Sequence record: OP595146.1
Source: Escherichia phage vB_EcoM_DE17
Strand: one strand, 5' to 3'
DNA: 64,000 nucleotides
The position numbers were made by a program, and so were the translations under genes. Position 1 is the first letter of the stretch. Each line of letters begins with the position of its first letter. Below are positions 59,253 through 64,000 of this stretch, piece by piece. Under the pieces are notes generated by a model, which saw nothing but the letters and a program-made list of their open reading frames with translations, was not told the origin of the DNA and ran no database searches.

Positions 59253-59987
59253 TTATTTCTGTAATGCGTTCTTCATTTCTGGTGTTGCAATAGTGTCAAT
59301 TACACCAGTTTTACAAGCATCATCAAACCAGTCTGGTAAGATACCTGCTAAGAACCCATTGATATTCGTTTTAAGGTACTCTGCAATAAGGGCAGCTTCT
59401 TCTTCAATCATCTGCACAACTTCATCTGCATAAGCTGTAATCTTTGAGATACCTTCATTAATCTTACTAACAGCTTGGTTAGCTAAATCAGAAATAGTAT
59501 CAAGACCTTTATCAATAGCATCCTGTAAGTCACTTAATACATCATTAACACCGTCTAGTGCACTGTTAATCGTATCCATAGCTTTTTGACCATACTCTGT
59601 AGCAACACCCATAATACCACTAAATGGTGTACAGCCAACTTGTTCACCTGCTGCACCCATAACATTAGAATAGCCTTTTGCTACCTGCATACGTGAGGAA
59701 AACTCATCAATGGACTTTTGACCATAATCTGTCAGTGTCTTAGTAGTTGATGTAGTGCTTGTCAGACTCGTTGTAAAGCTGTTAAGCAGAACTGTTGTAA
59801 GTCCAGCAGCAACAAGTTTATCTTTTATTGTAGGGTCTGTTACAGAGCTAATAGAGCTTACAAGTGATGTAGAGGCAGCTACGGTTCCACCGAGAACTGC
59901 TGCACCAGTAATAAGGGGATTAGAAAACCCTCTACCGGTTTTTAAGAGATTAAAAATCTCCTTACCTTGTTCTGTCATCTCTTTCAT
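59253..59987 (-). CDS. hypothetical Ser/Thr-rich protein embedded in tRNA cluster
   Basis: About 244 aa; start set to ATG at 59987 (MKEMTEQ) so it does not overlap the tRNA at 60004..60080; ends 3 nt before tRNA-Ser. Confidence 0.45.
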   Translation of the reverse strand: MKEMTEQGKEIFNLLKTGRGFSNPLITGAAVLGGTVAASTSLVSSISSVTDPTIKDKLVAAGLTTVLLNSFTTSLTSTTSTTKTLTDYGQKSIDEFSSRMQVAKGYSNVMGAAGEQVGCTPFSGIMGVATEYGQKAMDTINSALDGVNDVLSDLQDAIDKGLDTISDLANQAVSKINEGISKITAYADEVVQMIEEEAALIAEYLKTNINGFLAGILPDWFDDACKTGVIDTIATPEMKNALQK

Positions 59988-60003
59988 TAAGCACCTTTGG
60001 AAT

Positions 60004-60080
60004 TGGTAGTCCAGTGGGATTTGAACCCTCTTCTCATGTTTTTCAGACACGCGCTTTAACCATATAAGCTACTTGGACTA
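60004..60080 (-). tRNA. tRNA-Phe (anticodon GAA)
   Basis: T-loop TTCAAAT, anticodon loop CTGAAAA; one T-stem mismatch in hand fold. Confidence 0.6.
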
Positions 60081-60438: not shown

Positions 60439-60996
60439 TTACTTTCTCAGTGGATGAATAAAGAATGCCAACATAACTCTTTCCCTTGAGAATGCTCTTT
60501 CTTCTGGGACAACACTTTTTAGCTTCCATCCAACATAAATTCTCCAGTAGAATTGTTTACCAAAGACTTTAATTGATGGGATAAAAGCGAATAATCCCCA
60601 AGCATTACTGTTCCACATTAGGAGATAACCTGTCTGATTATCTTCAGGGTTAGAACTTACGTTGATATTACCTTTCCACTTAGTAACATCTTTTACATCT
60701 CTTCCTAATACATGGTAAGAGAAGTTATAAGCTTTGTTTCTCCAGAGCCAACCAACTCTCTGCATATAGACACCAAGCTTGCCAATCTTTCTAATCTTAG
60801 CCCATCGTTCGACATGCCCTTTATCACCATCAATTGGGTTGTCATATGTCTCCATCCATCTGAAGCCGAAAGGTAAGTGTCCTTTCTTCTCACTGTAAAA
60901 TGGAACTACAAAAGGTGCTAAGATAACTGCTAAGATTGCTGCAAATGGTTCTAACAAAGCTAAGAAAATCCATGAAGCATACTTCAAATATCTCAT
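60439..60996 (-). CDS. membrane protein embedded in tRNA cluster
   Basis: 185 aa; N-terminal hydrophobic helix ASWIFLALLEPFAAILAVILAPFVV; flanked by tRNAs. Confidence 0.5.
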   Translation of the reverse strand: MRYLKYASWIFLALLEPFAAILAVILAPFVVPFYSEKKGHLPFGFRWMETYDNPIDGDKGHVERWAKIRKIGKLGVYMQRVGWLWRNKAYNFSYHVLGRDVKDVTKWKGNINVSSNPEDNQTGYLLMWNSNAWGLFAFIPSIKVFGKQFYWRIYVGWKLKSVVPEERAFSRERVMLAFFIHPLRK

Positions 60997-61359: not shown

Positions 61360-61455
61360 ATGAAAGAGGTCTGAAGTTGTGCCGCTAACTCAACTCCGTG
61401 GGATTTGTTACGGTCTTCAGTTGACTCAAAGCGGTCTTTCACTTGACCTCTAAAT

Positions 61456-61784: not shown

Positions 61785-61862
61785 TGGTAGGAGACAAGGG
61801 ATTCGAACCCTCAAACACCAACTTCTAAGGATGGTAGGTTTACCAATTACCGTCAATCTCCC
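61785..61862 (-). tRNA. tRNA, isotype uncertain (loop suggests anticodon TAG)
   Basis: T-arm GAGGG-TTCGAAT-CCCTT, CCA encoded; loop CTTAGAA; D-arm fold ambiguous. Confidence 0.5.
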
Positions 61863-62116
61863 ATTAAATCTTTTTAGAGAACTTCTAAGAACCTAAGCAA
61901 CAAGGTTCCACAACAAGCTGTAATAACCTTAGAAGCCCTCTAAAAAGACCTAAATTGGTCTTTGCATAGTCTTGTTTAATCCGGTGACTAGAACCTTTGG
62001 AGAGCTTGATATTATCTCTTCTCCGTGACACCTACTAGGTGCTTTATCAGTGTGTACGACAATACACGAGGGATACCAAAGCAACATCCGAATGAAGCTT
62101 GGCTTTAAATCTTATT

Positions 62117-62207
62117 AGGCGGTAAGTAAAGGAGTCGAACCCTCACCGTATCTCTACAGTGGCAACTGTTTTCAAGACAGTTTGGCTACCATTAGCCGCT
62201 ACCTACC
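62117..62207 (-). tRNA. tRNA-Ser (anticodon TGA), class II
   Basis: 91 nt; perfect anticodon stem ACTGT/ACAGT, loop CTTGAAA, long variable arm; 3' CCA not encoded. Confidence 0.7.
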
Positions 62208-62220
62208 CCTAATAAGACTT

Positions 62221-62303
62221 TGGCATGGGACGGAGGAGTTGAACCCCTTTGAAACGGTTTTGGAGGCCGTTGCTCATGCCTTAGAGTCTTAACATCGTCC
62301 CAC
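62221..62303 (-). tRNA. tRNA-like gene, isotype uncertain (possibly Trp, anticodon CCA)
   Basis: T-loop TTCAACT and paired acceptor ends; 83 nt; internal fold ambiguous; candidate loop CTCCAAA. Confidence 0.45.
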
Positions 62304-62522: not shown

Positions 62523-62814
62523 ATTAATCTTTAAAGACTCTCTTAGAAAGCCCTTAAAGATGCCCACCTTATTAATCATACCGTGGGCGAGTACGCCAAA
62601 TTCTTTGATGAGGGATTGGAAGACCTCACTGGTGTTTAGCCTATCAAGCTACTGCCAGAAAAACATTGTCGTTTGCATTTATTTTAAGTTTGCAAAATAG
62701 ACGCTACGCAACGAAAACTATTCAGAATATGTACAACAAATTTCCCCACATTGTGTTACGTCTAACACTCATGTATTGGTGTTTGAATTATACATATTAT
62801 GAAGTATTTTAGTT

Positions 62815-62843
62815 ACTATAAAGTGGTCACACCTCAATGTCAA
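62815..62843 (-). promoter_or_regulatory. sigma70-like promoter inside tRNA cluster
   Basis: Minus strand TTGACA-N17-TATAGT in an AT-rich spacer between tRNA-Ile and the tRNA-free region 62523..62810. Confidence 0.45.
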
Positions 62844-63092: not shown

Positions 63093-63236
63093 ATTAAATC
63101 ATCTTTGTAGATAAGCTACCCAGACTTGCTTAAGGTCTGTAGCGATGTGCATTGTTGGGTTTAAATCTAGAATTTACCCTTTCACCCTTTGTGGTCGCAT
63201 ACTCACAGGTAAGCTTAATAGCTCACCTACAAAGAT

Positions 63237-63380
63237 AATTACCAGACCGTTGTTTATCATCTTAAGTGCTACCATTACACCAACTCGACATCTGCCGAGT
63301 GAAGGAATCGAACCTTCGCCTTTTCTTTACCGGAGAAATAGATTGTTTAAGTTTTGCTGTAAACGGTCTTCTGTAAATTT
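63237..63380. repeat. repeat copy 1 (attaccagaccgt ... ttttgctgtaaacggtcttctgtaaattt) carrying a tRNA-like T-arm insert
   Basis: Terminal motifs shared with copy 2; the two ends can pair (agaccgt / acggtct); about 95 nt between them includes gccgagt-GAAGG-aatcgaa-CCTTC with no matching 5' acceptor. Confidence 0.5.
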
Positions 63381-63865: not shown

Positions 63866-63872
63866 ATGTTTA

Positions 63873-63951
63873 GTATTACCAGACCGTATCTTTTCAATTT
63901 TTCCGCTAAAAATTTCATTAAATTTTGCTGTAAACGGTCTTCTGTAAATTT
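63873..63951. repeat. repeat copy 2 (attaccagaccgt ... ttttgctgtaaacggtcttctgtaaattt)
   Basis: Same terminal motifs as copy 1 but only about 36 nt between them; abuts the 3' end of the partial tRNA-Met. Confidence 0.5.
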
Positions 63952-64000
63952 GGAGGCGGGTGCAGGAGTCGAACCTGCCGATACCATGCTAATGAGACAT
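63951..64000 (-). tRNA. tRNA-Met/fMet (anticodon CAT), 5' part beyond window
   Basis: 3' half only: CCA, acceptor ACCCGCC, T-arm GCAGG-TTCGACT-CCTGC, loop CTCATTA. Confidence 0.5.

Follow-up and report, generated by a model that had tools for sequence, protein, structure and literature searches.

A structured minus-strand RNA conserved between two tRNA genes of Felix O1-type phages

Within the 64,000-nucleotide (nt) stretch of Escherichia phage vB_EcoM_DE17 analyzed here (sequence record OP595146.1; hereafter the window), an array of transfer RNA (tRNA) genes contains a 255-nt spacer, between tRNA-Ser(UGA) and tRNA-Leu(UAG), that is the subject of this study. The spacer is non-coding and internal to the tRNA array, and it specifies a minus-strand RNA structure that is under both purifying and compensatory selection. 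Its architecture, consisting of a variable 5′ hairpin (H1), a four-hairpin core, and a long hairpin (H6), is held by selection on RNA pairing in Felixounavirus, Mooglevirus, Suspvirus, and one distant lineage. The interpretation we favor, with a rough probability of 0.55, is that the spacer gives rise to a structured non-coding RNA of ~235–255 nt, which derives from a polycistronic tRNA precursor and has a role of its own, exerted through the core. A non-tRNA structured RNA beside the tRNAs had been proposed in an earlier note made from the sequence without database searches. The conservation of the paired arms and the nearly invariant hairpin core support that proposal and add the strand, which the note had not named.

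The region belongs to a Felix O1-type myovirus (Ounavirinae). Over 601 bases it is matched by 255 phage records, and its identity to Escherichia phages JH2 and P54, Shigella phage Z31, and others is 99–100%. The spacer itself is found in 253 phage records at 79–100% identity, and in all but one of these the match extends over at least 80% of its length. Thirty-six distinct versions of the spacer, taken from GenBank phages and IMG/VR contigs, were aligned.

Structure and selection

The elements of the spacer RNA, listed from its whole extent and then in 5′ to 3′ order, are as follows.

61863–62117, minus strand: the whole spacer RNA, 255 nt, an internal transcribed spacer (ITS) of the tRNA operon, from the tRNA coordinates and the 36-version alignment
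62075–62103, minus strand: H1, variable 5′ hairpin, from folding of the sequence versions
62051–62068, minus strand: H2, (C)GUGUA-UUGUCG-UACAC(G), from RNAalifold and manual inspection
62028–62042, minus strand: H3, GCACCU-AGU-AGGUGU, with an invariant stem, from the core alignment
61999–62024, minus strand: H4, GGAGA..GAU-AAU-AUC..UCUCC with an internal loop, from the core alignment
61964–61994, minus strand: H5′, UAGUC-14 nt loop-GACUA, from the core alignment
61944–61963, minus strand: H5, small hairpin AAAGACC-loop-GGUCUUU, from RNAalifold and manual inspection
61866–61951, minus strand: H6, stem of 25 base pairs (bp), 5′ arm 61927–61951 and 3′ arm 61866–61890, from pairing conservation and folding
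61891–61906, minus strand: H6b, apical hairpin of H6 (ACCU-UGUUGCUU-AGGU) with the loop UUGUUGCU, from comparison of variants

An inverted-repeat search returned two arms of 26 nt at 61864–61889 and 61928–61953, which are 85% complementary and 38 nt apart. The arms of 19 nt that the earlier note had pointed out (61872–61890 and 61929–61947) fall inside these, so that the repeat is real while its claimed length of ~19 bp is too short, the actual minus-strand helix having 25 bp. The two mismatches of the repeat on the plus strand (aa opposite cc) become G·U pairs on the minus strand, and the H6 helix is therefore uninterrupted only as a minus-strand RNA. The minus-strand segment 61863–61953 has a folding energy of −37.4 kcal/mol (z = −6.6), a value that no dinucleotide shuffle out of 200 attains. 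The complete 255-nt spacer is less exceptional (z = −2.8 for the minus strand, −2.4 for the plus strand).

The pairing of H6 is conserved as well as stable. Across 15 distinct variants, 97.1% of the cells in its 25 pairs are paired, as against 35–61% in slid controls, and not one of 500 shuffles reaches any of the measures. Seven pairs have changed on both sides, and the arms are kept in all 15 variants with changes of the compensatory and G·U type, which is the covariation that the earlier note had asked to be looked for. By our count the pair table holds 73 G·U cells and a single A·C cell. Such an asymmetry excludes a palindrome acting as duplex DNA and identifies the minus strand as the functional one. 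At the tip of H6, almost every variant keeps the loop UUGUUGCU of H6b, with L020 and L042 departing from it by a single base close to the 3′ end, and the H6b stem alternates between CCU/AGG and CCA/UGG from clade to clade. The small hairpin H5, which overlaps the base of H6, has undergone only changes from A-U to G·U and from C-G to U·G in its stem. We considered H5 with its U run as an intrinsic terminator and rejected it: the terminator scan made no call, the stem has only three G-C pairs, the U residues are taken up by pairing, and the U run reads UUUGU in L042.

Upstream of H6, the hairpins H2, H3, H4, and H5′ make up a core of ~110 nt that is almost invariant. Its identity to loci of the Moogle and Susp type is 93–95%, at the same loci where H6 has drifted to 72–74%, H1 to 67–89%, and a protein-coding spacer to 77–80%. 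On these figures, the conservation of the core equals or exceeds that of the tRNA genes. What variation there is respects the fold, with 98.9% of cells pairing. Variable columns are fewer among paired positions (12 of 68) than among unpaired ones (28 of 66; Fisher p = 0.002), and all but one of the 11 gapped columns fall at unpaired positions. Of the 11 stem pairs showing variation, nine can pair in all of the sequences. In H2, the stem has changed only from U-A to U·G and from A-U to G·U. Variation in H3 is confined to one loop position (U/C) and the closing pair (G·U/A-U), and in H4 to the apical loop, which reads AAU, AGU, AGC, or GAU above invariant stems. H5′ carries a single compensatory change, from U-A to C-G in L042, with all indels and substitutions otherwise in its loop. 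The further local hairpins that had been suspected in the spacer are accordingly both present and conserved, as judged from RNAalifold and the core alignment. H1 behaves quite differently: it comes in 23 distinct sequence versions belonging to several unrelated sequence families, every one of which folds as a hairpin at this place. A closing stem around the core (CCCUC/GAGGG) was also considered and dropped, since by our reading of the alignment it occurs in Felixounavirus-type sequences only and is not conserved.

These patterns bear on whether the spacer might be a decaying relic, such as a degenerate tRNA cassette or a palindromic repeat that a rearrangement of the array left behind without a present function, or else a site acting at the DNA level, such as a promoter, an origin, or an endonuclease target. 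The bases of the H6 arms do resemble a stem around tRNA-Ser, a likeness that points to a duplicated cassette; moreover, the tRNA arrays of Felix O1-type phages are mosaic, and a homing endonuclease gene lies nearby in Sf16. Yet core identities of 93–95% across genera are not expected of a relic, and a palindrome in duplex DNA would not give the observed excess of G·U over A·C cells. Neither ARAGORN nor the Rfam tRNA model detects a tRNA, a transfer-messenger RNA (tmRNA), or a tRNA remnant in 61863–62117, in agreement with the earlier statement that no tRNA fits here, and no sigma-70-like promoter or intrinsic terminator is predicted inside the spacer. We consider a relic or DNA site very unlikely.

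That the spacer is instead the gene of a small protein seems to us the least probable of all the explanations considered. The earlier note had seen no plausible open reading frame (ORF), but two minus-strand frames do exist, one of 48 amino acids (aa) with a GTG start (61885–62031) and one of 45 aa with an ATG start (61950–62087), and several GenBank records annotate a hypothetical protein, for example the 48-aa Bas63_0145. The note was nevertheless right in that neither frame is conserved. The 48-aa frame is shortened to 19–29 codons in other clades, is shifted by a 1-nt deletion in L040 and in L013, which is Bas63 itself, and meets a premature stop in L006. The start of the 45-aa frame lies in the hypervariable H1, and most variants lack this frame.

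Proposed origin and processing within the tRNA operon

ARAGORN predicts 23 tRNA genes between 59079 and 63865, every one of them on the minus strand, and Rfam supports 22 of the 23. The features that immediately flank the spacer are as follows.

62118–62207, minus strand: tRNA-Ser(UGA), upstream neighbor of the spacer, from ARAGORN and Rfam
61785–61862, minus strand: tRNA-Leu(UAG), downstream neighbor of the spacer, from ARAGORN and Rfam
62107–62119, minus strand: CCUAAUAAGAUUU, 3′ arm of a 13-bp stem that brackets tRNA-Ser, with its 5′ arm at 62208–62220, from the inverted-repeat search

Upstream of the spacer, a sigma-70-like promoter is found at 62843–62815 on the minus strand (TTGACA-17-TATAGT, 11 of 12 consensus matches). 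It lies inside a 336-nt spacer upstream of tRNA-Arg(UCU), part of which is 94–98% conserved, and points into the tRNA genes. The sole convincing terminator-like hairpin on the minus strand follows the last tRNA (58916–58899). The positions of these two elements, which are consensus matches only, are consistent with a spacer internal to a long tRNA transcript. The spacer RNA does not change with its neighbors: it is unchanged in L037, where the upstream tRNA is divergent, and in several versions that are followed by a different downstream tRNA.

H6 has several sister stems in the array. The stem bracketing tRNA-Ser, whose 13-nt arms are 92% complementary, prolongs the 7-bp acceptor stem of that tRNA, and its single mismatch is, by direct reading of the sequence, a G·U pair on the minus strand only. 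A 16-bp hairpin at 62527–62561 (minus strand, z = −4.8) stands directly before tRNA-Arg(UCU), and a stem with 22-nt arms at 63097–63240 (minus strand, z = −5.3), which encloses a further structured module of ~100 nt, stands directly before tRNA-Lys(UUU). H6 and the sister stems have similar bases, approximately UCUUUnnAG...CUnnAAAGAU, followed by UU(U)AAU. As we read the sequences, the wobble pairs of the sister stems also work on the minus strand only, and equivalents of these stems are present in L042, L044, and L050. The most economical reading of the stems is that they are processing or protective elements dividing a long precursor.

Several features of the array fit known nucleases. Substrates of RNase III are helices of at least 20 bp, or about two helical turns, and it is well established that a near-perfect helix of 25 bp is of the type that this enzyme recognizes; H6 is such a stem, with 25 consecutive pairs, G·U included, of nearly uninterrupted double-stranded RNA. 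T4 has a hairpin just 5′ of tRNA-Gln, its first tRNA, which we take to be the RNase III site of the 1979–1981 literature. This hairpin (NC_000866, L152 4532–4575, minus strand) reads AAGGGUUCU-UGUU-AGAGAGCCUUU, then GUUAAUAAU, and resembles the window hairpin before tRNA-Arg(UCU), which reads AAGGGCUUUCU-AAG-AGAGAGUCUUU, then AAAGAUUAAU; the resemblance may reflect a common processing signal or chance. According to a review, E. coli RNase III takes part in the maturation of T4 tRNAs (PMC4810235). The motif AAGA/UUU occurs in the trailer of tRNA-Ser, within the 62107–62119 arm, and again on the 3′ side of H6, and as a motif it is compatible with the uridine-at-+2 signature reported for RNase E (PMC5222698).

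Taken together with the conservation pattern, this allows a mechanism to be proposed. The spacer RNA would be co-transcribed with the tRNAs in a polycistronic precursor. Its 3′ end would be produced by the RNase P cut at the 5′ end of tRNA-Leu, only 3 nt after the end of H6, and its 5′ end would result from 3′ maturation of tRNA-Ser, whose trailer carries the RNase E-compatible AAGA/UUU. H6, as one of at least four similar long stems before tRNA sub-clusters or around tRNA-Ser, might be cut by host RNase III and so split the precursor, as in T4 tRNAs and ribosomal RNA (rRNA) operons; alternatively, it might shield the upstream RNA from 3′ exonucleases. H1 would protect the 5′ end. The invariant core, finally, would be a platform to which a partner, either a protein or an RNA, binds in a sequence-specific manner.

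The most serious competitor to a role of its own for the RNA is that the spacer acts purely in cis, providing RNase III and RNase E sites and insulating the tRNAs from misfolding, with the pieces being degraded after cleavage. Much of what has just been described would be expected in that case: H6 is among several similar stems directly before tRNA sub-clusters or around tRNA-Ser, its helix is of the RNase III type, RNase III is reported to act in T4 tRNA maturation, and a similar hairpin precedes the first T4 tRNA. The difficulty lies in the core. Processing in cis leaves ~110 nt of small hairpins, conserved at 93–95% while H6 drifts to 72–74%, without an explanation, and the other stems of the operon manage without a core, of which no paralogue was found in the window. 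The invariance of the core, matching or exceeding that of tRNA genes, suggests a binding platform and hence a role beyond that of a processing spacer. We therefore regard a purely cis-acting spacer as possible but rather unlikely.

The Ro60-like protein and candidate Y RNAs

According to a preprint, Bas63, a Felixounavirus, encodes just upstream of its tRNA genes a protein, gp130, that resembles Ro60 and counters the Ppl defense system; the authors speculated that some of the "tRNAs" might be Y RNAs (PMC11482910). The protein has 471 aa, carries the Pfam domains DUF2828 and DUF7788, and is encoded at L013:5367–6782 on the minus strand. It has no sequence match in the PDB. Its AlphaFold model (predicted local distance difference test, pLDDT, 84; predicted template modeling score, pTM, 0.85) was compared with known structures using Foldseek and matches Ro60/TROVE structures over the full length with E values of ~1e-8 to 1e-6, among them Thermus phage phiLo Ro60, Xenopus Ro60, and Deinococcus Rsr. 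The template modeling (TM) scores are 0.54–0.63 for nine of the 11 matches and 0.41 for Rsr. The model thus predicts a Ro60/TROVE fold with a vWA domain for gp130.

The corresponding gene of vB_EcoM_DE17 lies outside the window, past position 64000; four close relatives have it on the same strand as the core, and there it ends 2.1–2.8 kb upstream of the core. By our count, in about half of 48 diverse phage loci a tRNA array on the same strand comes immediately after the gp130-type gene, and five loci have a tmRNA gene 4–7 kb downstream of the gp130-type gene. A gene neighborhood linking phage Ro60-like proteins to tRNA arrays is therefore conserved.

The spacer RNA might be a Y-RNA-type partner that tethers or gates the Ro60-like ring protein encoded ~2.3 kb upstream. 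Gene order speaks for it: the gene for the DUF2828 and DUF7788 protein is on the same strand, 2.1–2.8 kb from the core in the four relatives; genes of this family directly precede tRNA arrays in many unrelated phages; and the structural match of gp130 to Ro60/TROVE is full length (Foldseek E ~1e-8). A phage Ro60 with adjacent Y-like RNAs has been documented (PMC12135203). By a published proximity rule, Y RNAs share the strand of a Ro60 orthologue and lie no more than ~4 kb from it (PMC4201824), a range in which the spacer RNA falls. The RNA itself, on the other hand, is a poor match to known Y RNAs. It has no module resembling a T or D arm. The motif GNCGAAN0-1G/CGAA occurs in none of 41 spacer versions, and the spacer of the window lacks CGAA altogether; no tRNA-clan match appears in the spacer at E values up to 10, and its hairpins have loops of 3, 6, and 14 nt, which match neither T nor D loops. 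At the two ends of the spacer, RNAalifold pairs six A/U-rich positions (AGAUUU with AGAUUU), which is a weak pairing and shows no covariation. The activity of the protein against Ppl, moreover, does not need the spacer RNA, since gp130 alone rescues T7 from Ppl (PMC11482910). The protein family is also far more widespread than the spacer RNA. Finally, a much better candidate of the YrlA type lies in another spacer, at 63243–63376 on the minus strand. A Y-RNA role for the spacer RNA is, on this evidence, improbable.

The candidate just mentioned occupies ~63243–63376 (minus strand), between tRNA-Asp and tRNA-Lys(UUU). It shows the full YrlA layout in its permuted order. The 5′ and 3′ ends form a bulged closing stem (GACCGUUUA...UAAAC-AA-CGGUC), and the other elements are the motif GGCGAAGG (GNCGAAN0-1G), a hairpin of the V-like type, the T arm GAAGG-UUCGAUU-CCUUC, a stem-loop resembling an acceptor stem, and the D arm GGUGU-AAUGGUA-GCACU. 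ARAGORN makes no call here, and the Rfam tRNA model scores 22 bits, which is below threshold. A comparison of 16 distinct versions shows a nearly invariant T arm, with a single substitution in L034, a D stem that is constant except for one closing-pair change (Moogle-type), and a D loop with one variable position. In the acceptor-like stem-loop the sequence changes while the pairing is kept, and the N of GNCGAA is G or A. This pattern of conservation is the behavior described for YrlA (PMC4201824), and the element is the likely partner of the phage Ro60-like protein.

A shorter element at ~63872–63950 (minus strand), just upstream of tRNA-Asn, shares its stem sequences (CAGAAGACCGUUUACAGCAAAA ... 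ACGGUCUGGUAAU) with the YrlA-like candidate but has an A/U-rich interior, and its fold is weak (z = −1.6); it could be either a remnant or a second, YrlB-like Y RNA.

A more speculative idea is that the core is a ligand for the Ro60-like protein, as a second "Y RNA" of a non-tRNA-like kind, or for a host protein of RNA processing or defense, and that in addition RNase III dices H6 to release a hairpin of ~40–60 nt whose conserved UUGUUGCU loop acts in trans. We hold this to be improbable, but if it were true, the "tRNA cluster" of Felix O1-type phages would be the operon of a ribonucleoprotein (RNP) system centered on Ro60 and consisting of the Ro60-like protein, the YrlA-like RNA, the spacer RNA, and the tRNAs, which might be used in counter-defense or in RNA quality control.

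Distribution and relation to known RNAs

The spacer family extends over Felixounavirus, Mooglevirus, Suspvirus, and the lineage of contig L042, which holds a more distant version and whose Ro60-like protein is 63% identical. Distant-mode blastn against 50,697 phage records gave matches in Ounavirinae only, and exact-word scans of IMG/VR and metagenome contigs returned the same spacer family and nothing else. When a covariance model of the core (R1) was run over 78 loci encoding a Ro60-like protein, L042 alone was found; with the filters off, no homologue was detected in the three nearest Ounavirinae-like outgroup phages, whose Ro60-like proteins are 47–56% identical. A host origin is not indicated either, as blastn found no match of the spacer in 5,426 E. 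coli genomes. The search of Rfam that the earlier note had suggested gave no family above the gathering threshold for the spacer, and at these thresholds tRNAs only for the whole window. With E values up to 10, the segment 61700–62900 yielded tRNAs and otherwise only meaningless look-alikes of microRNA (miRNA) precursors. The best such sub-threshold matches within the spacer are to plant and animal miRNA-precursor models, at 17–28 bits compared with cut-offs of 52–140, and reflect the long-hairpin shape only. No description of the spacer RNA was found in Rfam or in the searchable literature.

Several points weigh against the interpretation that the spacer yields an RNA with a role of its own. 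The family is narrow, no homologue having been found in the three Ounavirinae-like loci or in 75 other phage loci. In Bas63, the tRNA genes are mostly non-essential in PhageMaP, so the tRNA cluster may be dispensable under laboratory conditions. Covariation for the core fold is thin, with one compensatory pair and otherwise one-sided changes, because the core sequence hardly varies. H5 and the lowest pairs of H6 are rivals for the invariant GGUCUUU and mutually exclusive; in the minimum free energy (MFE) fold of the window sequence, GGUCUUU is used in H6 and not in H5. The cuts by RNase III, RNase E, and RNase P are ones that we infer from general E. coli biology, and a search of the literature on the transcriptome and non-coding RNAs of Felix O1 and Felixounavirus found no data on expression, end mapping, or stability.

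The spacer RNA would represent a new family in a known category, namely the non-tRNA RNAs of phage tRNA operons. Among known RNAs, the closest counterparts are the species 1 and 2 RNAs of T4 (rnaC and rnaD), with which it has position and origin in common without being homologous, followed by RNase III stems and then by Y RNAs. In T4, the species I and II RNAs come from the same transcript as the tRNAs (PMC2330249), and the T4 record terms rnaC and rnaD "small, stable RNA"; like the spacer RNA, they are small non-tRNA RNAs in a phage tRNA cluster, on the tRNA strand. The analogy with T4 drawn in the earlier note thus holds for the position in the tRNA cluster but does not extend to sequence or structure. 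A search with nhmmer, using the spacer profile, found no match to rnaC or rnaD in the T4 tRNA region, and the folds differ: by our reading, rnaC has a tRNA-like T arm and a closing stem, which the spacer RNA appears to lack. The T4 RNAs also lie at the distal end of their cluster, whereas the spacer RNA, roughly double their length, sits between two tRNAs in the interior and has a 25-bp hairpin at its end. To our knowledge, no function has been found for the T4 RNAs in 50 years.

The RNase III stems of rRNA operons and of T4 tRNAs are, like H6 and the tRNA-Ser stem, long near-perfect helices that flank or precede stable RNAs. H6 differs from them in its conserved apical loop, for which a mere cleavage stem would have no need. 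Y RNAs (YrlA and YrlB, and Yrl1 and Yrl2 of Thermus phage phiLo) likewise are encoded on the same strand as, and less than 4 kb from, a gene for a Ro60-fold protein, and are multi-hairpin RNAs from a longer precursor, as the spacer RNA would be if it is processed as proposed. The spacer RNA lacks their GNCGAAN0-1G/CGAA motif and their T- and D-like arms and may lack their long closing stem, all of which are present in the candidate at 63243–63376 (minus strand). A further comparison is offered by E. coli itself, where 3′ETS-leuZ and the ITS of metZ-metW-metV are tRNA-operon spacer RNAs that are released by tRNA-processing nucleases and act in trans. Those are short, weakly structured sponges for host small RNAs, whereas the spacer RNA, which would resemble them in biogenesis, is long and highly structured.

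If the spacer RNA were annotated as a conserved RNA, this would correct more than 250 genomes in which the segment is either blank or annotated as a non-conserved hypothetical protein. Felix O1-type phages are widely used in the typing of Salmonella and E. coli, in biocontrol, and in therapy, and hundreds of their genomes have been deposited. The RNA would also be a new family among the few non-tRNA RNAs that phage tRNA operons are known to encode. With a Ro60-fold protein that counters Ppl, a YrlA-type RNA, and the spacer RNA together in the operon, a tractable system would be at hand, in the genetically accessible E. coli phage Bas63, for studying the roles of the non-tRNA RNAs of phage tRNA clusters.

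The remainder of the array holds a few other features. Two protein genes lie among the tRNA genes on the minus strand, at 60439–60996 and 59253–60050; one encodes a hydrophobic DUF7338 protein of 185 aa and the other a DUF7217 protein of 265 aa, the gene for which is found at the same place, between tRNAs and the terminase gene, in more distant relatives. A spacer of 96 nt separates tRNA-Thr from tRNA-Val (61360–61455, minus strand). It is 93–98% identical across clades, and its fold is a multi-stem structure closed by a stem of 7 bp (−29.9 kcal/mol, z = −3.3); it may be a further non-tRNA RNA or a degenerate tRNA. Between tRNA-Arg(UCU) and tRNA-Ser(UGA), at 62222–62303 (minus strand), a tRNA-like element that ARAGORN does not call combines an acceptor-type stem of 8 bp with an odd D region, a T-like arm, a GCC(A) end, and, at the anticodon position, a 5-bp stem with the 9-nt loop CCUCCAAAA. 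The Rfam tRNA-Sec model gives it 23 bits (E = 0.085). In some GenBank records, a "tRNA-OTHER" or pseudo-tRNA is annotated under a query that includes this element, and the spacer around it is 88–96% conserved across clades.

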